A DNA stretch of 63,536 nt, the filler included, from Cladosporium halotolerans (taxonomy: Eukaryota): the NCBI RefSeq assembly GCF_011745625.1. It is 16 parts of 16 records of this genome, joined end to end, with 100 filler letters (N's around TTAATTAATTAA, not from the genome) between each part and the next. Parts side by side here need not be neighbours in the genome. Positions count along the whole stretch, not along the records: positions 37,122 to 41,039 come from NW_027191708.1; 15 more parts are not named here. The stretch is one strand, 5' to 3'. Under the pieces are notes generated by a model, which had not been told where the DNA came from, did no database searches, and worked only from the letters and a program-made list of their open reading frames with translations. A program made the translations under genes and the position numbers. This document shows positions 4,215 to 59,996 of the stretch, one piece after another (position 1 is the stretch's first letter; each line of letters begins with the position of its first letter).

Positions 4215-4314
4215 NNNNNNNNNNNNNNNNNNNNNNNNNNNNNNNNNNNNNNNNNNNNTTAATTAATTAANNNNNNNNNNNNNNNNNNNNNNNNNNNNNN
4301 NNNNNNNNNNNNNN
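4215..4314. other. Artificial contig spacer (N44-TTAATTAATTAA-N44); 15 identical spacers start at 4215, 8376, 12536, 16679, 20769, 24846, 28916, 32983, 37022, 41040, 44887, 48727, 52538, 56241, 59897
   Basis: Identical 100-nt linkers with stops in all six frames; contig lengths fall monotonically from 4214 to 3540 bp. Confidence 0.99.
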
Positions 4315-8375: not shown

Positions 8376-8475
8376 NNNNNNNNNNNNNNNNNNNNNNNNN
8401 NNNNNNNNNNNNNNNNNNNTTAATTAATTAANNNNNNNNNNNNNNNNNNNNNNNNNNNNNNNNNNNNNNNNNNNN

Positions 8476-19086: not shown

Positions 19087-19192
19087 TACGTCCTAGTCAT
19101 TCTGTAGGTCGACTGTAGACGAGGGTTGTTGAATTTATTGAAGAAAAAGCTATTCATCACGTAGATATTGTGTCTTCTAGGCGCACCTGTCA

Positions 19193-20668
19193 ATGGCTGC
19201 CGTTGTGCGCCCGCCGTCGCAGCCGGACGAGGGCGCGTCGCCCGCATTGACGCGTCCAAGCCGACAACGCGTCTCACGCACCGAGGTCGACTATCGGAAA
19301 CTGCACCGAGGAATATTGGCAAAGGAGACAGCTCTGTCTAAAGCATCAGGGAAGAGCAGCGAAACTTCGGAGTCTCGGCTGGACACTGTTTTGAAGGCCA
19401 TTGCCGGCGTGCGCGAATCTGTTGACGAGCGCTTCGCCCTCGTTCAGGAGGCCATCGAACAAGTACCGGACATCGGGCAAGTGAAAGAGACCGTATCGGA
19501 ACAAGTAAGGGACATTGTTCAAGAGCAATTGAAGGCCACCGGACAACGCGAGATTGTAGAGGCTATTAGGGACGAGGTCAAGAGCGCCGTGCAACAGCAG
19601 GTGAGTGGGGTAGTTCGTCGGGAGGTCAGGGAGGTGGTGCAGCAAGAGGTCAAAAGTATCGTGCAGCGAGAGGTCATGAACATTGTTACGGATAAGGTCA
19701 CTGCGATCGTTCAACAGCAGGTTACTACCATAGTCCAGCAGCAGGTCACATCTATCGTCCAGGAGCAGGTCACAGCCATCGTCGAAAAGCAGCTATCTAG
19801 CATTGAACCGTCGAGCAATCAAGCATCTAGCCCGAATCCGTCGTACGCCGACGTCGCGCGCACCCCACCGGGCAGTCACCCCAGTAACCTGAGGACGCTC
19901 TCCAATCAGACAACCCCATCAACTTTGACTGACACGCTGTACTGCACGGTGGATGTGTCCAACGTTGAAGAGAAGGAGAGGGGGAGGGCGAATGCTAGCA
20001 AGATCAGACAGGAGGTCGAGGAAGGCATGAGGAAGGGTGACGGGGGAAGCGGGTGGCGATGTGTGGCGGTGACGAGGGACCCTCGCAATTCCGGCCGCAT
20101 TCGCATCACCTGCCGGGATGAAGAGGAGTTGGCTCGGGTCAAGTCTGTGGCCGAGAGGGCGAAGGCGAGCGGAGCGCGCGTGCTGCGCGATCAATGGTAC
20201 CCCGTCAAGGTGGATAACACGTGCAGGACGGCGGTGCTGGATGAGAATGGAGAGCTGCGGGTAGGTGCGACGGAATTGATGGAGAAAGAGAACGAGGTGA
20301 AAATTGCCAAACTGTCGTGGCTCAGCCGGAAGGATTCGCCGAAGGCGTACGGGTCTATGGTCGTGTATGTGACGAAGCGCGCCGATGCAGCGAGGCTCCT
20401 AGACGGCCAGTACTTCAACGTGGACGGGGAATCAGCTTTCACCCGGGTATTCGAGCCCAGACGCGGACCGATGCAGTGCTTCAAGTGCCTGGGGCTTGGC
20501 CACAGGGCGTTTTCGTGTACCAAACCCCAGGTGTGCAGCAGGTGCGCTCAACCAGGCCACCGTCACAGCGAATGCCAGGCGGACAGTCCAAAGTGTGCGG
20601 TGTGCGGCGGACCACACGAATCGTCTAGCCGCCAATGTCGGATCCTTTATCCAGCGGCTAATGTCTAG
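19193..20668 (+). CDS. Tad1-like LINE ORF1 (gag-like)
   Basis: Coiled-coil region, SYADVA, YPVKVDN, three Cys/His knuckles (CFKCLGLGHRAFSC, CSRCAQPGHRHSEC, CAVCGGPHESSSRQC). Confidence 0.93.
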   Translation: MAAVVRPPSQPDEGASPALTRPSRQRVSRTEVDYRKLHRGILAKETALSKASGKSSETSESRLDTVLKAIAGVRESVDERFALVQEAIEQVPDIGQVKETVSEQVRDIVQEQLKATGQREIVEAIRDEVKSAVQQQVSGVVRREVREVVQQEVKSIVQREVMNIVTDKVTAIVQQQVTTIVQQQVTSIVQEQVTAIVEKQLSSIEPSSNQASSPNPSYADVARTPPGSHPSNLRTLSNQTTPSTLTDTLYCTVDVSNVEEKERGRANASKIRQEVEEGMRKGDGGSGWRCVAVTRDPRNSGRIRITCRDEEELARVKSVAERAKASGARVLRDQWYPVKVDNTCRTAVLDENGELRVGATELMEKENEVKIAKLSWLSRKDSPKAYGSMVVYVTKRADAARLLDGQYFNVDGESAFTRVFEPRRGPMQCFKCLGLGHRAFSCTKPQVCSRCAQPGHRHSECQADSPKCAVCGGPHESSSRQCRILYPAANV

Positions 20669-22394: not shown

Positions 22395-23987
22395 CTAAGC
22401 TGGCCGCCATTCGTAATGGTGTGATCCCTTCTTCGCCTTGCCCGGGTCTTCACCGGGAACTCCGGGTCGGTCAAAGTTGTGTGCGCCGAAGAAGCTGTTT
22501 ATACTCAGTCAGCTATTGGGCCTCGACTAGATCACGTTCAACTTACTCCATTTCTGCCTCCATGAATTGCGTAGCCAACATCGTCCCACCAGTATACTTG
22601 ATATACTCCAGCGATGCTGACAGTGATGGGACGTAAGCATGCCATTCGACTCCGCGGAGCACGATTTCTTGCAAAGCTTGGTAGTGCTTGTGCAGCTCGG
22701 CGGACACTTCATCAATGAGCTTCATGTTCGTAATTGGCTCCGTCGTGGAAGTGAAGATCGGCTGAAGCATATCCACGATGTACTCCTCCTTGATGATGCA
22801 GCCGGCGCGCCATATTCTGACCACCGTTCCCAGGTTAACATCCCAACCCTCGTCCTTGGAGGCGCGAGCGATGAGCTCCAGACCTTGACAATAAGCGCAA
22901 AGGAACGAAGCAAACACGGCCCGGCGTAGATTCTCGATGAAGGTGTCCTTGTGCTGGATCTGGGCTTTCGCAGGCTGGGGTATCTGCATCTTGTGAGCTG
23001 CGCGCAGCCTCTGATCGCGATCACCGCTCGCAACACGGAAAAACTGTCCTGCGGCGTTGGTCGGGAAAGACACATGGCGATCTGCAGCCTCTGCGATCGA
23101 CCAGAAGAGCGTTCCCTCACTGTCATCATCGTCTTGGACCACCTTGTCCAGAACGTCATCTAGCACGTAGCCGCCTTGTCCCCGGCCTTCGTGGTTCGCG
23201 TCGCCCTCTGGCGTCTTTTTGCGCTGGCAAATTTCAGAGCCAATCTGCACGAGATAAGTGTCTTTCAGCTCCCCTTCGCTGTTCCAGCGCTCAAAAATCT
23301 TGCCAACCTCGTCGTTTGATAGGTCGAGCGACTTGCGCAAAATGGACCAGGCTTCACACAGCGTGGACAGAAAGCCGTTTTCGATGCCGTTGTGGACCAT
23401 TTTTACATAGTGGCCGGACCCTTTGGGCCCGATGTAGCCCACACACGGATTCCCGTTCGAGTCCTTTGCTGCGTACCTTTCCAGCAGCGGAAGTACTTCC
23501 TCAACCGCCTTCCTCTCGCCACCAGGGGTCATACTCGGTCCACGGCGAGCAGCCTGGTAACCCTTACTCATGCCGGTGCCTACCCAATGCACGCCTTTCT
23601 TCTGGAGCTCACGCTGCCTCCGTTCAGTATTGCGATAAAGTGCTCATTGCCACCGTCAATGATAATGTCGCCTTCCGCCAGGTCGTCTTTGATTTTCTCC
23701 AAGACGCTGTCAGCTGGCGACCCGTGAGTGATGGAAAACATGAACAGTTTGCGGGGCGCGCTTTCAAGTGACTTTACGAAGTCATGGACGTCGTGAAAGC
23801 CTTCCCAGTTGCGCTTTTTGTGAATGCTTTTGCTCATCTCGATGGCTTCGTCGACGTTACGAGAGTTGACATCCCAAAGTGACACATCGAGCCCCATCTC
23901 GCTGAACGCCATCGCCATCTCGGTGCCCATATTACCGGCGCCCACGATGCCAATGCGCCTAAACTTCTGGATAGCATCCTCGGACAT
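22395..23987 (-). pseudogene. 6-phosphogluconate dehydrogenase (decarboxylating) paralogue with one frameshift
   Basis: IGIVGAGNMG, IIDGGNE, GSGHYVKMVHNGIE, IWRAGCII; 3' intron (~22496-22547) gives DFFGAHNFD...HYEWRPA*; frameshift in T-run at 23637-23639. Confidence 0.92.
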
Positions 23988-37121: not shown

Positions 37122-37283
37122 AGGCGCGAAAACGTCTTGTGGAATACGGAGTTGAAGCGCGTCCTTATCATTGACTTTCACAAATCCGAGTTGATCAACA
37201 AGCAGACCACAATGCTCAAACGAAAGGGCGCCACGGTTGGCAGCGCCCATGTAAGACGACCGCGACCGCGTTTGGGCGTCTGA
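37122..37283 (+). CDS. Protein-kinase-like fold, C-terminal fragment
   Basis: RRENVLWNTELKRVLIIDFH resembles the catalytic-loop end plus DF motif; begins at contig edge. Confidence 0.6.
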   Translation, partial: RRENVLWNTELKRVLIIDFHKSELINKQTTMLKRKGATVGSAHVRRPRPRLGV

Positions 37284-38102
37284 AAACGAAAAGGTCAACC
37301 ACAGTTACAGCAAATTCTTTGGATTAGCTTTGCTGTCTTTGGATGGCCATCTAGCAGACGAAATGCCAGATTTCCGACCGGATGTTGTTACTAATCGTCA
37401 ATATGGGTCTATCGCCTGGTTTCGCCAACGCTTGCACGATGCGTGTAGCTTCCCTGGCAATTTCCGTATACGACAGAAAGATCTGCAAATTAATGATGAA
37501 AGGAGAGCGGGGAAACTGAATGATGAAAAAGCAAAGGGTTATCTTACTATACCTTTGTGAAGACCGCGCCTGCACAGACACTTCACCATTTAGTCATGCT
37601 TAAGGCCAGTGCCAACTATCTGTACCACGTGCACGGCGTCCTACGCAATTTCTTCTCGCCGGATTGGGCAGACCATGAAAGTCGACGAGCTTTCAAGGAT
37701 CTTCACTTTCCCGCGGAGGTGTTCATCGGTAGCCACGGTACTCGCAGGGCCCTCAGTATTCTGTCCAAGGTTGGTCTCGCGCGTCATGCTGTAAGATCGC
37801 AATAGCGGCGGTGTGACCGTTTTCAACTCCGAACAAGTGACAATCTGCATGATGAGAAGCAAATCGTCCCTAACGTAAAAAGCTTTGCGCACGAGATGGC
37901 ACAGATGAGACACGAAATTAGTTGCTTGTGACACATTGCAGTAATCAGCATTCGGGTGTCGAATAGGGACTGCGACTTGCTATTGAGACACAAACCCGTT
38001 TACATCACAAGGATGGTCCACATCATGTTCTTGAGAAGACTGCATGCTCAGCGAGAAGGGTGGAACATCGTTCACAGGTGGGATCCGACAAGACAAGACA
38101 GC

Positions 38103-38857
38103 TCAAGTCTTGCGAAAGTCAGACAGCACCGGGTATATGAGCTCGAAAGCCTGGTACAGCTCTTCCCGTACCTTGGCGCCGGTCAAGACAAGTTTTCCAG
38201 AAACGAAGATCAGCAAAACGACTTTTGGCTCCATCATGCGATATATCAGACCCGGGAAGAGCTCGGGTTTGTAGGAGCTGAACATGTGATGCCGGTTGGC
38301 CAGGCCCTCGAGCCGGACCGGGAGTTTGATGTCCCAAGAAGCAACGATGTTTTGTATCTTAAACTCTGTAAACTTCGTATTGAAGCCCAGCTTTTGAAGC
38401 ACACGCGTGGACTTGCGACTCGCAAGCTTAACGTCATCTTCAGACTTCGCACCCGTGACGACCATCTTGCCAGATGCGAAGATGAGGGCAGTCGTCTTGG
38501 GCTCACGTATGCGCATAAACGCGGCTGCGAAACGCTTAGAGAACAGTCAGAAAGAGCCTACACTACCATGAGAACGCCCTTACCTTGGGATTGTATTCTG
38601 CATTACGGGCGTGCAACGCGATGGTCTTAAGGTCGAGGCGACAGCCGAGGTTTACCGTAGCAACGACATTTCTTCACAGTGGTGTCATTATGCTGACCAG
38701 GTCGCATGGTTTTAGTGGGGACCTTGCGCAGTGCTTACTGTAGCGTGGGGATTACTCCACTAACACCTAACGAGGTGCCAGACGTGGGAGCTGTACACTG
38801 CTTGTCGAGTACGAGTGCCTCTGGAGGCGGACTACGGGTGGTGCTGACGTCGTTCAT
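38103..38857 (-). CDS. TBP: TATA-binding protein (SPT15-like), divergent paralogue; exons 38857-38739, 38671-38584, 38534-38103 (212 aa from first in-frame ATG)
   Basis: [56 protein letters not shown]...[11 protein letters not shown]...[15 protein letters not shown]; two GT-AG introns restore the frame; start codon uncertain. Confidence 0.95.
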
Positions 38858-39583
38858 CACGCCCTGCGATGGGTCATTTGTTTGGACAACGCGTTGACTT
38901 GGGTGCTGTTGAGTTCCTACAAGAGAAGAAACTTGAGGGGCACAAGTCGTTCGCAAGCACTTCTGTGATCTTAACGTGGATGGCTTAGACTGCCATCAGC
39001 ACAAGCGCCAGTAATCTCGGTTAATTGCATCGCCGATAGGAAGGGCGGTTAGACAGCCGCGGCGCGTCCCGCAGTCCAGCTCTGGAGCGGCTGAGCACAG
39101 GCCTGGTTGCTCCTGGAGCAGGATGGTCCAAGCGTTATCGTGAAGTTGTCAGTTGACTGCTGTGAAAATTGTTATGTGAAATATTTCTTCCTTCCTTCAA
39201 ATTGTATGGTCATATTCGTCGACCGGCTCGGAGGTCTGATTTGATGCACGTCGTCGTTGCGTTTGTCTTGTTGTAGCCTGCGACACCGCGTCCTGTCGCC
39301 GCTGAAGTACCAAGCCTGACAGGCTTGCATAATTTACTTCATCGTTCACCGTGCCGAATGCCTTGGAGACGCATCCCCCAGCCAGCACATTCCTGCCGAA
39401 GGTTGAAGGAGGGCGGTCGTGAACAAGGGAAGCCGTAGGGAGAGAGAAAGTTCATATGCTCAATCTGCAGCTCGTCAGGTCGCGCCTTGACTGTACCTTG
39501 ACCCTTTGGCTACGCAATCAGGCATCGAAAGACCAATTCGGCCCAACGCGCGCGCGAACGCGCAAAACTTGATTCTTCCCGGT

Positions 39584-40465
39584 ATGCCAGGTCGCACATC
39601 GTCTCGGAGCGTTTCATCTACACGCAGGAAGAGAAGAAAAGGATACGGGTGGACTAAGCGCCGGCTTCTCGACACCTGGCCAGCAAGGGCAATTCTTGAG
39701 GAAAATTCTCGAGAAAATCACATACTTTGGGAACCGGTATCCGGCGAGTCCGAATATGAGCAAACATGGGAGCCGAAACATTAGCCGAATGATTCTCTTG
39801 TCGCAGATTGGAAGCAGCATCAGCGCGCCATCGTGGAAATGCACACCGACAGTGACAAGAACGTAGAAGATCTTCAGCCGGCAGACCAGGGAAAAACTGA
39901 ATATCATGGCAAAGTGGAGTTTGGAGGCTCCTCACCAAAGACTCTCCCAGTCATTCAGTCGACCGAACGGCACAGTGCCAGCGATGGGAATATTCGTGGG
40001 TTCTGCGCCCATCTGCATCAACAGAACACGTCTGACGAAGTCTTGTCATGTCCCTCAAGGCAAGCAGCTTCAACTGTGAATTCTGATCAGGCCTCATGGG
40101 ATCATTCAGGCACCGATCTGCCGCATTCGAATCATGACCCAGTGTGTGATTCAAGTGAAGATAAAGGTCACGGGGGACACGATCCACGTCCCGGTACAAG
40201 AATATGCACGTTGCTACTGCCAGACCCGCCTGTTCTAGCGGAATATGTCACGCATGAAAGAATGAATTCGATCCCAAATGATGGCGAATCACCACAGACC
40301 GCGAGCGCTGCTAAAGTGTTGGGTGATGATAAACACTCGTCTTCCGGGAAGCTAGCAAATGCACGACAGCAGCTGCGAGATCTGCTCTACAGACGCAAGA
40401 ACCACCGACCGGGCCGCGGAAGATTTAAAGCCCCCATGTCGCCTCCAAGCTCTGAATATTGCTAA
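39584..40465 (+). pseudogene. Chromo-like domain protein with internal stop
   Basis: WPARAILEE...HILWEP...YEQTWEPKH*PNDSLVADWK; TAG at 39782-84 separates two same-frame ORFs. Confidence 0.65.
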
Positions 40466-40711
40466 CTGGGCAGCGAAGAGGACTCGCAGGGAGGTGGATT
40501 CAAAAGAGGAACAGGGGGTAGGCGCCTCTGACTCTAGTCGACGGGGGGGTTCCGCTTTGACCGCTGCGCGTTTATAGAGTCGCACGTGGTACTTGGCGCA
40601 AGACACAAAACAACAACGCAGCAAAGACGCAACGCGTATCTTCGATCTCATCACTTACTCACTTTCGACTTCCGGACTTCTGACATCACAGGTCACTAGG
40701 TGCGGTAGTAA

Positions 40712-41039
40712 ATGGCGTCCGCTCGTCTGCGAGTTCCGCCCAAGGAGCCAGAGGCGCGCAAAGGGCGGCGACTAGAAGACGAAGCCTCCGGATCCGGGTC
40801 GGCAGAGCCAAGGAGTCCAGCGCTTCTCTCGTTTGATGAGATGCCGCAATGGTTTCAAGACGACAATAATGAATGGGTTCGTCACGGTTACCGACCCATA
40901 TCACACTCGGTTCGCACCTCGCTCCGCAGTTGGTGGAGAGTCCACAACGAGACGGTCAACATCTATTCCCACCTCATCCCGGCCGTTGCATTCCTCCTTG
41001 GCGAGTGGTATATTCTACAGTACCTTAATCGCGACGATT
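40712..41039 (+). CDS. PAQR/haemolysin-III (IZH-like) membrane protein, 5' part
   Basis: EMPQWFQDDNNEWVRHGYRP...SWWRVHNETVNIYSHL; runs off contig edge. Confidence 0.92.
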
Positions 41040-42519: not shown

Positions 42520-44049
42520 TTAATCCATCTCATCCACCGCAAGACGCTGCGGTTCCTCCTCGGGGGCCACCGCACGTGCCTTACCCTGTCTCTCCAGCTC
42601 CTCGACCGCTTTCTGCCCTTCCTCAGTCGTCGCATCAATGACACCCTCCTCGAGACTCAGCATACCGCCATTACCCAGCTGCTCAACAATCTGCTCCGCC
42701 TCATCCACGCTCATCTTCCCAAGAACCTCGTTGACCTTGTCCAGGCTCTCACTCTCCAGGGCCCGCTGCAAGCCCGGTGGGAAAGAGTCGAAGATCGCGC
42801 GGGCGGTTCGTTCATCATCGGTCGTGCACTTGTTCGCGGCCGGGGGCGTGACGATGTTGATCTGTGTGTTCGGATCGACGGCGTGCAGCTGGATCTGCTC
42901 TTTGTCGGAGGATCCGGCACTCTCGCGTGCGAGCTCGGCTGTGCGTGTGCGAATCCGTGCGTAAGTGCTATTGACGTCGTCGAGGAAGAGCTTGCGTGCT
43001 TGGTGACCGGGCGTTTGGATTCTCTTAAAGAAGAGGCCGACGCCGTCCTTTCCTAGCTGTCGACAGTATTGGAGGAGGAGAGCTTGATGGACGCACTGCC
43101 GGGCGTAGTCCTCTTCACTCTTGCTTTGGGCATTGCTTTGAGAGTTGAAAGCCTCAACGAGCAGGCCATCGGTTTCCTTCTCGACCAGGATTCCGGGATT
43201 CTTCCCAATGAACTCGAGTGATCCGGCGTAGTCGCCGAAAGCGAATTTGGCGAATCGCTTTGCTGTAGGAGAAGCCTCCATGTCGTCTTCGTCGGCCTCG
43301 CCGGGCGCTGTGCTTACTGCGCCGTCTTCGATGTCGGCTTCCGCGCCGGATGTCAGTCCACCATCTTGCTTGGACGGGCGGTTAGGATTGAGCAGCTCAG
43401 GCTGTACTGAAGATGCAGGCGCCGTGGGCGTCGGCTTTGCGACGTAGGAGCTATTGAAGCCTTCGTGTAATGACTCCGAAGTTATCTTGCCAGCCTCTAC
43501 TTTCTCCAGCTTGGTGAGCTCTGTGTTGAGATCTCGCTGCAAACCGTTGACCTTGTCCTGGTGTGCGGTGACCTCTTTCACATATTCTTCGTAGCGCTCC
43601 GCACCCTCAGACTTGTTCTTGTCAATCTCCGTCTTCACCTGGTCCACCAGCGCGCCCATCATCTTGCTGAAACTCGCCAACTCCTCGTTTGTGTGCACGC
43701 CCTCGGGAGGCTGCGGCGGATTGTCGCTACCTAGGCTTCCATCACTGCTCACTTCCATCAAGGCGTCGAAGACCACCTCGTCCACCTGGCTCACTTCCTT
43801 CTTGCCCTCAGCCTCCGCCTTGTGTGTGTCCAGACTCTTCAGCAGGGCATCTATGCGGGCGAGCAGGCCATCATTGATGACGCGCTCATATTTCAGGGTC
43901 GTGATGCGGTGTCTCCTCGCAAGGCGTTCCTGGTGGATTTGATTCTGCTTTGCGCGGATGAAGGAGCGCTTGTCGACGTTCGGATGGACTTCGATGTCAG
44001 AGTCGTCGGACAGCTCAAGGGCGTCCCATTTGCTGTAGTCAAGAGGCAT
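42520..44049 (-). CDS. CDC37: Hsp90 co-chaperone Cdc37, 509 aa, intronless
   Basis: MPLDYSKWDALELSDDSDIEVHPNVDKRSFIRAKQ, CVHQALLLQYC, FDSFPPGLQRALES. Confidence 0.97.
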   Translation of the reverse strand: MPLDYSKWDALELSDDSDIEVHPNVDKRSFIRAKQNQIHQERLARRHRITTLKYERVINDGLLARIDALLKSLDTHKAEAEGKKEVSQVDEVVFDALMEVSSDGSLGSDNPPQPPEGVHTNEELASFSKMMGALVDQVKTEIDKNKSEGAERYEEYVKEVTAHQDKVNGLQRDLNTELTKLEKVEAGKITSESLHEGFNSSYVAKPTPTAPASSVQPELLNPNRPSKQDGGLTSGAEADIEDGAVSTAPGEADEDDMEASPTAKRFAKFAFGDYAGSLEFIGKNPGILVEKETDGLLVEAFNSQSNAQSKSEEDYARQCVHQALLLQYCRQLGKDGVGLFFKRIQTPGHQARKLFLDDVNSTYARIRTRTAELARESAGSSDKEQIQLHAVDPNTQINIVTPPAANKCTTDDERTARAIFDSFPPGLQRALESESLDKVNEVLGKMSVDEAEQIVEQLGNGGMLSLEEGVIDATTEEGQKAVEELERQGKARAVAPEEEPQRLAVDEMD

Positions 44050-44788
44050 GGTGGAAAGGAGCGGTAGCTGGTGTGAGTGCGGACGAGAGACTCACAAGGC
44101 GATGAGGCAGTATCTCATGCGACGTTGTAGCAAAATTGCAGGTGACGTTGGATGCTTCTCGAAGGTGCGTGGGAACCACGCGACGAAGGCAAGCCCCACC
44201 AAGCAGTTGCGCGCGAGTCAAGCCAGTCGGCCAGGGCGCGCAACGCTTTCGCTTGGCCGAGTCATAGCAGATGTCACCCTCCAAGTGTGAGACGGTACAT
44301 TTCAGGAAAGGAAAGAAAATCTTTGGTCCTTTCTCGCAAGCCAGCTGACAATTTCTTGACAGCCACTCAAAAGTGGTATCGCCTTGTCGGAAAATTGCTG
44401 CACGATTTCATTATGCCCGCGAAGAAGCTCTAGATGACGGCGGACACTTCACTTCGCCCGAGCATCTCGTTCGACCTGGGAGTGTTTCGGTACGTGTCGA
44501 ATTCTACGAAGTTCAGATCGACGCGTTTGATACATCTCTGGTTTGGCTGGTTGATGATCGGTGGTTACTTTATCTCATGTCTATCCAGAGAACTCGGGAC
44601 GACGCTATTGGAAGTAGACATAATGGCAATCCAGATCAGTTCTCGCCTATGTCCACTGGCAAGGGATCTCAGATCGCGGACGTAGATTCAAAGGGCGAAG
44701 CGGCAAGACGGCTGTAACGTCGCGTGCATGCAAGTGGCAAATCTGCCTTCCGAAGGCGATAAGCCGTCTCGGCCGTGCGTGTGCGACA

Positions 44789-48726: not shown

Positions 48727-48826
48727 NNNNNNNNNNNNNNNNNNNNNNNNNNNNNNNNNNNNNNNNNNNNTTAATTAATTAANNNNNNNNNNNNNNNNNN
48801 NNNNNNNNNNNNNNNNNNNNNNNNNN

Positions 48827-51800
48827 GCCGCAAGGGTACGGCAGTATCCAGTGGTACTTAAAAAGCCATCGCCAATACCGTCGAGTGAATTTATGCACGA
48901 GGTCTTCGCCCTGCATCCTCAGCCCTATCTTTGCCCGCTGGTACAGCTTGCGGAATGGCTTATCTTCCCAGTGCAGTCGAGCCAGACCGTCCCCATCGTT
49001 GAGCAAAAAGGCTGCGAGGTCGGACGGTACTTTGAAGTCGCAGCGATTGCCAGACAACAAGTAGCAACCGTCCACCATTATATCGTCGAAGTAGCTGTAG
49101 CAAAACGGTTGCTCTCCTTGCATCGCCTCCTCGCGCTTCTCCTCTTTGATCTCGGTCTTCACGGCGTTCAGTACGTCGAGACGGAGCTGCTTCAAGCACA
49201 CGTGTACCATCCATGACAAAACCTCCTCTCGGATGATCTCGTGCTCTCCGTTCCTCTCGATCCACGTCAATCCTCTCTCGAGTGCTACGGCCGTGTCAAA
49301 GAATGCTGCCAGTCGTTCGCCTCGTCGTATTATCTGCCCTCGTAGCACTCCGTTACCGAACAACATGCTGTTCGTGATATCTGGCTTGAAACATAAACGC
49401 TGCCAATCGATCCGTGGCTCCAGCCAACAGTATTTGTATCGGGGCAGTGTATTGCAGAATCCCAATCCGTACCACTTCCGCTGTTGGGGCGCTTCTCCCA
49501 AGATTCGCTTGCTGGCCCACATGGCGGATTCTGGCTCCAACTGATGGCCACCGATGACGAAGCGCAAGCAACGGAGGAAGGCGAACATCATCTTTGTTTG
49601 CTCCCACGTCACCATCGTTGTCCTGGATTGGGCGTGGATTATCTCGAACGCTGTCGCGTATTTGTCCACGCTCCGCCACAGAAAGTCGAGGTAATTCTTA
49701 GTCTGTACTGGCCATGCATATTGGGGGCAGTCTAGCATTGTCACTTGGAGTGATGTGCGATCTTCGGCTTCCAGGAGTGCTTTGAGCCGCTGGAACAAGC
49801 CCCATGTGACTCGGTGTTCTTCCCTTATACCGAAAGACCGCGTCCTCGAATCCAGAATGGCAGCTCGGGCGCGGCGTTTGCTCGCTCTGTACGCAAGCTC
49901 CACAATCTTCGCATCACGTCTGTGGCCACCTGAAAGGTTTCGGAAACCGCGCCGCAACTGGGGATCGAGTGCCATCTCCTCTAAAGCGTCGTTGTCGAAC
50001 GGCTTACACCTTGCAGCATCCGTCATCTCCTTCACCGAGCCGTAGAACTGGCTGTAGATCAGACCCCCTTGGCGCAGTACTGATTGCTTCGGAGTCACAC
50101 TCGTGAGGCTACTTGCCTCGTATAACATATTTTGGTGATAGTATCGCTGTCCTTGGGCGCGTGGCGATGGTGGCTTTCCATCGTACATCCACTGCATGTA
50201 TTCTTCGAGGCAACACCGCTTCCATGAGTACACTTGGGCTTGCTGTCCTATGTGTCGATCTTCACCTGGGAGTAGACTGACACTTGGGCATATTTCCTTG
50301 CCAATGTCGACGTAGAAACGCTCTTGATCCACAAAACTCATGTCGAGGATCGGTTGCAGATAAGACTCGTAATGTTCCATGACATCGAGTAGCGTGGGCC
50401 GGGACGACGGGCCCTGGAAGTAAAGCTTCGTTCCTTTTGCTGTGCAGAGCAGCTGAGGCTCCCGGAAATCTGCTAAGCCAGGTGTATCGCTCACTGTGTC
50501 CAACACGATATCCCAGACTTCGCGGAGATACTCCGGCTGAAGATGGTACGCAATCCCTTGCTGAGCTTGGTAGCTGCTCGTCTCGATCTTACGGGCCTCG
50601 GTCTGATTTGCCTTTGAGTTCGCTAGTGCCACTCGATAGGTCGAGGGCAGGTGCTGAGTATAGTGCGCCGGAAAGACTTTCCACAGAGCGGGGTGAAAGA
50701 CACGATCCGTCCAACGTGATAGTTGCTCCTCAGTCATGGACTTGAACTTATCGCGTCCGGCTACGAGTTGTAGGTGGGGAAACAGTACGTGGACTGTGAT
50801 ATTGTGCGCGCCACACAACCTACCGAGGAGGAAATGTGGCACATCCCGGAGCATCTTCCTGCAGGAGCGAAGGGTCTCATCGTCGTCGGAGACGTTCTCA
50901 AAGGCGTCCATTTCTAGGTGTACGTCTGTCTGGATATTCTGCTGCGCTTGAGCTGCAGGTTGATACGACAGACCTTGTTTTGCAGCAGCCAGTGATGAAC
51001 AGAATCCCAACATGCTGTCGATGTCAAAAGCTACCAAAGGCTCGATCGCTTGTGTTTGTTCTTCGTGCAGACAAATATTCATAGGCAGCCGTTGCTGTCC
51101 TCTTGCTGGGATGCCACAGAAGGCTTCTTCCCATTGCGCTGCGGTGGGCAGCTGCACCTGCTGAAGTCGGGCGGGAGACATCAGATCATCGTATGGGAGT
51201 ACTGATGGGAAGTGACGGGACTTGAAGACGTCGTCTAGTCCGTGGTGGTTGTTAGTCTCCGCTTCCATGTGCTCGCGGAGTTTCTCCTCGTGTTGCTCCA
51301 CGGAGCAGCCGTGGTGGCCGCCTTGTAGTTGCTGGAACAGCTTTTCGGCCGTGCTCTCACTCGCCACTTCACCTTCTTCGTCAACTTCGCGCGCTGAAGC
51401 GAAGCTGATTTCTGACTCTTCATCCTCGGACCGGACGCTAAGTTGTTCCCAGCCAAGCAAGTCTTCAGTTCCTAGATGTAGCTCTTGGCCGTCCTCCCGT
51501 ATTGCGACACCGCTAAGTCTGCGTTCAATGTCCGCCACCTGAGTCTCGGCTTCTAATTGTTCTTCTTGAATTCCGATCGCGTCATCTGTCACAAGTTGGG
51601 GGTCATCATCACGTGGGGCTGGTATTGGGGATATTGTGTCTCCATTTCCAGAAAGGACGTGCAGGTGGTCGGGGCTACTGACATTCGAGCGCAATTGTGA
51701 GTCTCCAGACTGAGTTCTGGTAGTCGACGGCTCGTCGTTGCCAGCTCTGGTCGTAGTTGGTGTATGCGCCCTCGGTCTTGCAAACTTTCGAAAGAATCCT

Positions 51801-52180
51801 TTCATGACTGTACGCATTTCACCCGAACTCTCGTTTGTGTCTCGCTGCCTTTCCTGGTAAAGGGAGTTATGCTCGTCTACATCTTCTGCGCTCTGTTGTA
51901 GTTGTGCGTCTAGTGCGTCGTGCGGTATGTCGAGGTCGGGCGGCTTTCGCATGCCGAGGGACACTAGCGTTGCGGCGGCTTCTTCTTCCTCCACCGTTGT
52001 AAGATTGACAATGTGGTCGCCTTGCTCTTGCTGCGCGACAGACGGTTGTGTGTCTATCAATTGTGTTTCTCTTTGTCGGAGGCGATGCTGTCGTACACGT
52101 TCCCGCACTTGTTCGCGGCGACGGTTCACCGCTGCGCTGTCGCTTTCGCCAGATAGGGGACGACCCCTTTTCACTGGCAT
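48827..52180 (-). CDS. Large uncharacterised protein (>1117 aa, 3' truncated) with N-terminal AT-hook/basic helix
   Basis: 3.35-kb intronless ORF; KRGRP and RRREQVRERVRQHRLRQ, acidic linker, then a long globular region (FDIDS, YSQFYGSVKE, SFGIREEHR). Confidence 0.85.
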
Positions 52181-52301
52181 GTTGATGTTCCCTGCGAGCG
52201 GTGTGTACAAGTTAAGCTATGAGTATATATCAAAAAGAATCCCATACACGGCTGTGGCTCTGCTGAAAAAGGCTCTTTGTTGGCGTATGTAGTGTTGTTG
52301 G

Positions 52302-59896: not shown

Positions 59897-59996
59897 NNNN
59901 NNNNNNNNNNNNNNNNNNNNNNNNNNNNNNNNNNNNNNNNTTAATTAATTAANNNNNNNNNNNNNNNNNNNNNNNNNNNNNNNNNNNNNNNNNNNN

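Follow-up and report, generated by a model that had tools for sequence, protein, structure and literature searches.

A divergent, intron-bearing TBP paralogue of Cladosporium halotolerans with a lysine at the TFIIB-contacting stirrup position

Described TBP paralogues and the Cladosporium locus

Few eukaryotic proteins are as conserved as TBP. Metazoa have a TBP-family paralogue alongside it, TBPL1 (TRF2/TLF), whose core is about 40% identical to that of TBP, and vertebrate TBPL2 (TRF3/TBP2) is described as a paralogue with a core near TBP, a differing N-terminal domain and a tissue-specific role. In the passages of Ravarani 2020 (PMC7221094) that deal with TBP surfaces, TBPL1 is characterized by a Trp where the N-terminal lobe otherwise has a DNA-contacting Phe that is universally conserved. 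The same passages place contacts of TFIIA, TAF1, Mot1 and Brf on a basic patch of the N-terminal lobe, and let the first Glu of the stirrup motif YEPE (position C.L3.2) contact a conserved Arg of TFIIB/TFB and of Brf1/Brf2, the two stirrup Glu together contacting conserved Arg and Thr of TFIIB/TFB (PMC7221094). The human mutants E284R and E286R are reported there to lose much transcription in vitro, a loss tied to TFIIB binding, and large DNA viruses to encode TBP-like proteins with a TFIIB-like partner of their own, in which the DNA-binding signature is kept and the adapter-binding signature diverged (PMC7221094). The DNA-kinking Phe pairs of TBP are named in a passage of PMC6672047. For Ascomycota, a transcription-factor survey gives TBP a family expansion index of 1 (PMC9934661), and our search of article texts brought up no account of a paralogous TBP in Cladosporium, Hortaea or any other ascomycete.

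The TBP gene described here resembles each of these systems in part. With the canonical fungal TBP (S. cerevisiae Spt15; P0405 in C. halotolerans) its product shares the two PF00352 repeats, the saddle, the Phe pairs, both Asn, the lysines of helix H2 and the second stirrup Glu, and the gene has both of its introns at the positions found in the Cladosporium canonical gene. It is nevertheless not the main TBP, and it has 23 changes in 180 core positions, an N-terminus of 32 instead of 88 aa, a lower GC3 and a Lys at the Glu that contacts TFIIB/Brf. Unlike TBPL1, it retains all four Phe and about 87% identity to TBP. TBPL2 is closer in kind, but the clade of the window gene nests among Dothideomycete canonical TBPs and with Cladosporium DNA, as expected of an independent origin, and comprises several diverged versions. 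The human E284R and E286R proteins share the exchange of an acidic for a basic residue at C.L3.2, whereas the present case is a natural allele in which Lys replaces only the first Glu, alongside other substitutions. The combination of a kept DNA-binding and a diverged adapter-binding signature recalls the viral proteins, but the gene is cellular and recently derived from a host-type TBP, and most members of its family keep the adapter signature. An origin independent of metazoan TRF1, TBPL1 and TBPL2 is suggested by the nesting of the clade within fungal canonical TBPs, in trees built without metazoan rows.

Gene structure and substitutions

The window, that is the whole stretch of DNA analysed (63,536 nucleotides), consists of 16 unlinked small pieces of 4,214 to 3,540 bp, joined by 15 spacers (each N44 + TTAATTAATTAA + N44). 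The minus-strand gene at 38103-38857, as read from the sequence, has three exons with 639 nt in frame and encodes a TBP of 212 aa. Its parts are as follows.

37122..41039: contig of 3,918 bp that bears the gene and is the sole context linked to it; the rest of the window is unlinked
38739..38857, minus strand: exon 1, with the ATG start, an N-terminal tail of 32 aa and the beginning of the core; ends after PTLQ (split codon)
38672..38738, minus strand: intron 1, 67 nt, GTAAGC...AAG (GT..AG)
38584..38671, minus strand: exon 2, strand S1 and helix H1 of the first repeat; ends at NPK; PF00352 E 3.6e-09
38535..38583, minus strand: intron 2, 49 nt, GTAAGG...CTGAC...TAAG, between NPK and RF
38103..38534, minus strand: exon 3, the remainder of repeat 1, the whole of repeat 2 and the TGA stop (38105-38103); PF00352 168.7 bits

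The frame and both splice sites are intact. The spliced translation is identical to a database protein (P0121; NCBI: TATA-box-binding protein, Cladosporium halotolerans) that is recorded on a contig of likewise 3,918 bp, and PF00352 (TBP) matches the 212-aa protein in two stretches, its two tandem repeats, with 217.3 bits against a cut-off of 22.9 (E 1.6e-65). Exon 1 is also spanned by a contig from a public sequencing run (X1, record 3), which covers 38656-38865 with 6 differences and 0 gaps. The intact spliced TBP core proposed in the sequence-only reading was thus recovered, with its three exons, two GT..AG introns, open frame and two PF00352 repeats. A processed pseudogene or retrocopy was ruled out by the two GT..AG introns at parental positions and the open frame.

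No further TBP was found in the window by tblastn, none of the other pieces resembled the 3,918-bp contig by blastn, and that contig has no terminal or direct repeats of 18 nt or more. Among the ORFs that flank the TBP gene, Pfam gave just a weak HlyIII start. The best full-length relatives of this HlyIII gene fragment are in Sordariomycetes (78%).

In an alignment to the yeast TBP chain 1rm1_A, residue n of the window protein corresponds to yeast n+28. Four Phe (F71, F88, F162 and F179; yeast 99, 116, 190 and 207) and two Asn (N41 and N131; yeast 69 and 159) are kept, which by the residue numbers of the yeast protein correspond to the DNA-kinking Phe and the minor-groove Asn. Their retention had been noted in the sequence-only reading together with a set of unusual substitutions, and the alignment agrees on every one of them: SYEPE to SYKPE (K158; yeast E186), RKYAR to RKSTR (S111 and T112; yeast Y139 and A140), IVGSCD to IVASWD (A134 and W136; yeast G162 and C164) and FAAVIM to FAAAFM (A74 and F75; yeast V102 and I103). 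The N-terminal domain, described as atypical, has 32 aa as compared with 88 aa in the canonical C. halotolerans TBP. The contact of the first YEPE Glu with TFIIB, which had also been invoked, is likewise stated in the passages of PMC7221094 mentioned above.

For a measure of how unusual these residues are, we used 90 distinct canonical cores, drawn from 203 gap-free sequences among 249 candidates. Between the window core and the canonical Capnodiales core there are 23 differences in 180 positions, and 10 of them fall in columns that hold a single residue in all 90 cores, which exceeds chance. The following codons deserve attention.

38268..38270, minus strand: K158 (yeast E186, human E284), charge reversal at the TFIIB/Brf-contacting Glu; Glu in 90 of 90 canonical cores
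38409..38411, minus strand: S111 (yeast Y139), helix H2; private to the window copy; Tyr in 90 of 90
38334..38336, minus strand: W136 (yeast C164), strand S1'; private to the window copy; Cys in 86, Thr in 3 and Ser in 1 of 90
38322..38324, minus strand: L140 (yeast F168); private to the window copy, with Ile in two sister variants; Phe in 90 of 90
38229..38231, minus strand: E171 (yeast K199), charge reversal that is private to the window copy; Lys in 90 of 90
38517..38522, minus strand: A74 and F75 (yeast V102 and I103), strand S3; Val and Ile in 90 of 90 each; private or family-wide, as the sister ORFs start downstream of both

At the stirrup, the acidic pair is reduced to one residue, with Lys at C.L3.2 (K158) and Glu at C.L3.4 (E160); the family consensus (P0127, see below) has both Glu. 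The basic lysines of helix H2 are intact. Since these lysines, the Phe pairs and both Asn are kept, DNA binding is predicted, and the Lys at the TFIIB/Brf-contacting Glu together with the Ser at Tyr139 of helix H2 would weaken docking of TFIIB/Brf1 and of factors that use H2. The window protein may therefore be one that binds DNA, docks TFIIB/Brf and H2-binding factors poorly and is expressed at a low level.

The AlphaFold2 model computed from a 39-row alignment (mean pLDDT 79.4) shows the order S1-H1-S2-S5-H2 twice, and its residues 1-31 score below 50 and are disordered. Foldseek retrieved yeast TBP as the best match to this model (7o4i_O and 1ytb_A; TM 0.95 by target length, rmsd 1.0). A model from the single sequence had a pLDDT of 36.1 and was uninformative. 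The protein probably folds as a normal TBP saddle and should still be able to sit on TATA-like DNA.

A paralogue family and its origin

The window gene is an extra TBP, and the main TBP lies elsewhere in the assembly. The existence of a second TBP had been proposed from the sequence, and a canonical protein of 268 aa (P0405) is indeed encoded on a contig of 1,163,075 bp with the same accession series and taxon as the window gene, so the latter is not the only TBP of the genome. Over the last 143 aa, the two proteins are 87% identical. An orthologue of SPT15, that is a main and single TBP, was rejected for the window gene on account of this canonical gene and of the placement of the window gene in a separate clade (support 100/99, see below). 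The same accession series contains a second ORF of the paralogue type (P0126, 137 aa, on a 23,985-bp contig).

The closest proteins are 137-aa ORFs with 92-93% identity to the window protein. Together with it they form a lineage-restricted paralogue family, previously undescribed, of at least 21 variants (20 that cover the last 137 residues in full and one of 120 aa) that have 13 changes from the canonical sequence in common. These stem changes are mostly conservative (10 score positive in BLOSUM62, mean +1.31), and several of them cluster on helix H2. The phylogeny suggested along with the sequence-only reading was run as a maximum-likelihood tree of 43 protein rows, in which the 20 rows of paralogues group as a single clade (support 100/99, stem 0.095) beside the Capnodiales canonical sequence; two outgroup rows of this tree are mis-registered and very long, and the paralogue clade is unaffected by them. 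Proteins named Hortaea werneckii fall within the clade, which a purely Cladosporium origin does not account for, and H. werneckii has its own canonical TBP (P0283) beside the paralogue type. As C. halotolerans, C. inversicolor and H. werneckii do not differ at all in the 180-aa canonical core, all amino-acid change occurred on the paralogue side.

Within the clade, the window copy has the longest end branch (0.036). Relative to the consensus-like variant P0127 it carries six private changes in 137 aa, more than any other variant: Y36S, K41Q, C61W, F65L, E83K and K96E, corresponding to Y139S, K144Q, C164W, F168L, E186K and K199E in yeast numbering. K41Q is a return to the canonical residue. Y139, F168, E186 and K199 are the invariant positions of the 90 canonical cores listed above, and C164 is Cys in 86 of them. 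The charge reversal that the sequence-only reading had treated as a trait of the paralogue is present in the window copy, but it is rare, as the Glu at the TFIIB-contact site is kept by 18 of the 21 variants. E83K otherwise occurs only in variants P0001 and P0123, on a different background.

Across the family, the 32 distinct private changes (K41Q excluded) have a mean BLOSUM62 score of -0.22, and 20 score 0 or less. They are more radical than the stem changes (-0.22 versus +1.31), a sign of relaxed constraint in the family and the pattern expected of decay. Five of the 32 fall in the six stirrup positions among 137, against 1.4 expected (binomial P 0.012, for a region picked after the sequence-only reading had pointed to it), and the residues introduced there vary by copy (K, S, T, R and Q).

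At the DNA level, a scan of metagenome contigs with the canonical protein yielded 80 loci, 53 of them with an uninterrupted core and six Cladosporium-like by their N-terminal domain. The synonymous difference (pS) between the window gene and the six Cladosporium-like canonical cores is 0.61-0.67, as compared with 0.72-0.84 for eight other canonical cores and 0.01-0.34 among the six themselves; similarity in GC3 fails to account for this order. A DNA tree of 46 cores unites the window gene with the six Cladosporium-like canonical cDNAs in one clade (support 94/95, unstarred), with a very long window branch of 0.76.

The introns were compared as well. The position of intron 1 is common to canonical TBP genes generally: canonical ORFs end after PTLQ in Cladosporium (P0394-P0396 and P0402) and in Hortaea (P0412), and tblastn matches are interrupted at the site in three further loci (L067, L071 and L080). 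The Cladosporium canonical gene likewise has an intron at the site of intron 2 (the P0403 ORF reads on into it beyond NPK), and intron 2 is present in P0146 and P0008/P0009 and absent from L067 (Extremus), L071 and P0148. The DNA tree, the lowest synonymous distance and the common intron 2 together tie the origin of the window gene to the Cladosporium canonical gene. Contamination by Hortaea was set aside on the same three lines of evidence.

The position of the window gene next to the L001 group as its sister (support 96/85), which would put it within the Cladosporium crown, was not relied on, because the fixed differences do not agree with it. At the 25 sites fixed between two Cladosporium groups, the window gene matches one group at 8, the other at 10 and neither at 7, which places the duplication at or before the split of the two groups and not within the crown.

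Against the six Cladosporium genes, the window gene has a nonsynonymous difference (pN) of 0.063-0.074 and a dS of 1.2-1.7, for a pairwise dN/dS of about 0.05; if synonymous change is split evenly, the value for the paralogue side would be about 0.1. Sites that do not vary among the six canonical genes carry 73 changes in the window gene, 50 of them in third, 17 in first and 6 in second codon positions. This excess of third-position change and the dN/dS of about 0.05-0.1 argue for long purifying selection, and point to a family that was a working gene during most of its history. A decaying duplicate, which the sequence-only reading had considered, does not fit the family and is a live reading for the window copy only. 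GC3 is 0.64 in the window gene versus 0.74-0.79 in canonical genes, a drop as might be expected of a weakly expressed gene. RIP as the source of the high synonymous divergence was not supported: the 73 polarised changes are 43 transitions and 30 transversions, with 5 of 15 C>T changes preceding A and 1 of 13 G>A changes following T, and hence no C>T/G>A excess in CpA/TpG context.

Variation among copies and readings of the window gene

Public sequencing runs were used to look at alleles. At 38270, the letter that gives Glu makes up 472.9 of 495.9 depth in run X1, and all depth in X4, X5 and X21; the window's own letter has the other 23.0 of 495.9 in X1. At 38231, the letter that gives Lys has all depth in X4, X5 and X21. 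E186K of the window copy is thus a rare allele, and its private substitutions rest on the assembly and on the 23.0/495.9 depth in X1 at 38270. In X1, 115 contig pieces on the 3.9 kb fall in four identity classes (38, 37, 28 and 12), which indicates several diverged versions of the whole contig in this run, in one genome or several; summed X1 contig depths are not usable as copy numbers. In one X1 contig, a single nucleotide is inserted after 38231, within exon 3.

Two runs bear on splicing. A cDNA-like contig of X5, a run whose library kind is a guess ('DNA?'), has intron 1 removed and exon 2 joined to exon-1-like sequence (loose end at 38671), and at intron 2 it omits 59 nt by use of an AG 10 nt inside exon 3, which results in a frameshift. 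Record 20 of X4 spans 38183-38607 with intron 2 retained. In the marine metatranscriptome X21, records 11-13 cover 37986-38523, that is exon 3 and 117 nt past the stop, with 5-8 differences each (95-97% identical); these contigs have a depth of 3-5 and come from the copy of a relative, with DNA carry-over as a possible source. Contig cover has gaps in X21 over 38563-40265 (including exons 1 and 2) and in X5 over exon 1, which are gaps in contigs only. Runs X6-X20 and X22-X24 contain small shares (0.05-0.15) of the contig's words, uninformative as to habitat or host; the highest share in any public run is 0.49. A degenerate DNA pattern for a 10-residue paralogue motif had 0 matches in genome contigs and 0 in metagenome contigs, the latter being contigs of JGI metagenomes and metatranscriptomes that do contain Cladosporium canonical TBP cDNAs.

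The window gene is a member of an old and real paralogue family, and we consider it probable, with considerable room for doubt, that constraint is now relaxed and that its product binds DNA and docks TFIIB poorly. The Cladosporium-type canonical gene was duplicated at the DNA level, with both introns retained, no later than the radiation of the Cladosporium species sampled. The family then probably shed most of the N-terminal domain and its codon bias and fixed about a dozen mostly conservative changes, several on helix H2, under purifying selection. Later, the window copy would have acquired its six private changes, most of them at sites that never vary in canonical TBPs, to become at best a weak accessory TBP with low expression. 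Constraint on it would have been relaxed because its function is covered by the canonical gene and by sister copies. The window copy itself, intact in frame and splice sites, has rare and damaging-looking changes, and may be a weak accessory factor, a competitor or dead. A selected paralogue family beside a parent without any core change would amount to a natural experiment on the variable surfaces of TBP, and provides naturally occurring variants of helix H2 and of the TFIIB/Brf salt bridge.

That the window copy is already functionless, a redundant duplicate on its way to a pseudogene in which the frame is open only because too little time has passed, is rather unlikely on present evidence and remains the most serious competitor. 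It would explain why this copy has the most private changes and the longest end branch, why four of these changes hit columns invariant in the canonical cores, and why GC3 is down to 0.64; the changes include a Trp at Cys164, a residue buried in the TBP core, and a charge reversal at the TFIIB-contacting Glu. Its location on a 3.9-kb contig, and sister versions in which an insertion may disrupt the frame or splicing shifts it, fit as well. However, the frame and both splice sites are intact, and the same Glu-to-Lys change recurs in P0001 and P0123 on a different background. Exon 3 may also show signs of constraint: a rough count against the X21 contigs gave 15 differences in 367 nt, about 4 of them non-synonymous, and an omega of about 0.12 (P about 9e-5 under neutrality), on the assumption that X21 encodes the family consensus. 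If the window copy is merely decaying, the consequence would be a useful point of annotation, as the name 'TATA-box-binding protein' conceals a protein that is not the main TBP.

A specialised factor, be it the whole family or the sub-lineage with the Glu-to-Lys change, is improbable. Such a protein could act as a dominant negative that occupies TATA sites without recruiting TFIIB/Brf, or as one half of an orthogonal pair of TBP and a TFIIB-like protein, as proposed for viruses in the passages of PMC7221094 on their TBP-like proteins. The long purifying selection on the family, the retained DNA-contact residues, the accumulation of private changes in the TFIIB stirrup and the occurrence of E83K on two backgrounds are compatible with this, and so is the clustering of family-wide changes on helix H2, which by the yeast alignment carries the basic patch of the N-terminal lobe where those passages place the contacts of TAF1, Mot1 and Brf (PMC7221094). 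Yet Glu is retained in 18 of 21 variants, the stirrup changes differ among copies and do not converge, and the stirrup P value comes from a region chosen after the claim had been made. Put in its broadest form, Cladosporium-type moulds, and possibly Hortaea, would have an old and selected accessory-TBP family with a stirrup remodelled copy by copy, the copies with Lys being TATA occupants blind to TFIIB or paired with a co-evolved TFIIB-like partner. This is a long shot; if true, cells would possess an analogue of the orthogonal TBP-TFIIB systems that have been suggested for giant viruses, and this in a phylum for which TBP is reported to be strictly single-copy.

Foreign DNA in the assembly, from the TBP of a contaminant or from a contig of a co-cultured Hortaea-like fungus, is very improbable: the 3,918-bp contig does lie among other tiny contigs, has close protein relatives named H. 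werneckii, a top public-run share of its words of just 0.49 and an adjoining HlyIII fragment closest to Sordariomycetes (78%, full-length), but canonical cores are invariant across these orders, so the main TBP of a contaminant would differ from this one, H. werneckii carries a canonical TBP in addition to the paralogue type, Cladosporium is indicated by intron 2, by pS and by the DNA tree, and the accession series includes a second paralogue-type ORF, on a contig of 24 kb.

TBP paralogues recorded under Hortaea werneckii

Several NCBI records assign ORFs of the paralogue type, the family to which the TBP gene belongs, to Hortaea werneckii (P0125, P0012 and their cluster); the contigs that carry these ORFs reach 86,652 bp. 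DNA and intron evidence links the family to Cladosporium. The members named H. werneckii would be explained by any one of three events: an ancient duplication with losses, a transfer between the two halotolerant fungi, or cross-contamination.

A cDNA-like contig (record 26) from X5, a sequencing run whose library kind is guessed to be DNA, matches positions 37787-38671. Intron 1 is absent from it, and intron 2 is gone together with 10 further nucleotides, the acceptor being the AG at 38525-38526, so that the reading frame is shifted. This contig represents an unproductive splice form, or else a retrocopy belonging to a different organism.

Other features of the TBP contig

The contig also carries:

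37122-37283 (+), ORF fragment, left contig end
40712-41038 (+), HlyIII/PAQR (Izh-like) gene, start only

The sequence of the fragment at the left end looks like that around the catalytic loop of a kinase-like protein from fungi, but it found no match in the Pfam search. The HlyIII/PAQR fragment has its best full-length relatives, 73-78% identical, in records under the names Beauveria, Clonostachys and Microdochium, which are Sordariomycetes, while relatives from Elasticomyces reach only 57-60% identity, though they are taxonomically closer. Such a patchy distribution hints that this region of the contig has moved horizontally.

Make-up of the window and genes on the other contigs

The window consists of 16 small contigs in descending order of size, from 4,214 to 3,540 bp, joined by spacers (the first two at 4215-4314 and 8376-8475, the last at 59897-59996), each of the form N44 + TTAATTAATTAA + N44. 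Genes from separate pieces are not adjacent to one another. Features outside the TBP contig include:

6665-8419 (-), open frame of 584 aa
17127-19085 (-), uninterrupted pogo/Tc5-type transposase ORF of 652 aa (DDE_1, HTH_Tnp_Tc5)
19181-20668 (+), ORF of 495 aa with a weak zinc-knuckle match
22543-23643 (-), 6-phosphogluconate dehydrogenase fragment
42520-44091 (-), Cdc37 ORF, full length, with the N, M and C domains
48779-52216 (-), open frame of 1,145 aa
52712-54295 (+), open frame of 527 aa

The long open frames of 1,145, 584 and 527 aa were without a Pfam match at an E-value of 0.001. The Cdc37 ORF and the 6-phosphogluconate dehydrogenase fragment, which represent housekeeping genes, are located on tiny contigs other than that of the TBP gene. 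The 495-aa ORF lies next to the transposase ORF, and a single piece of 3,990 bp carries both.
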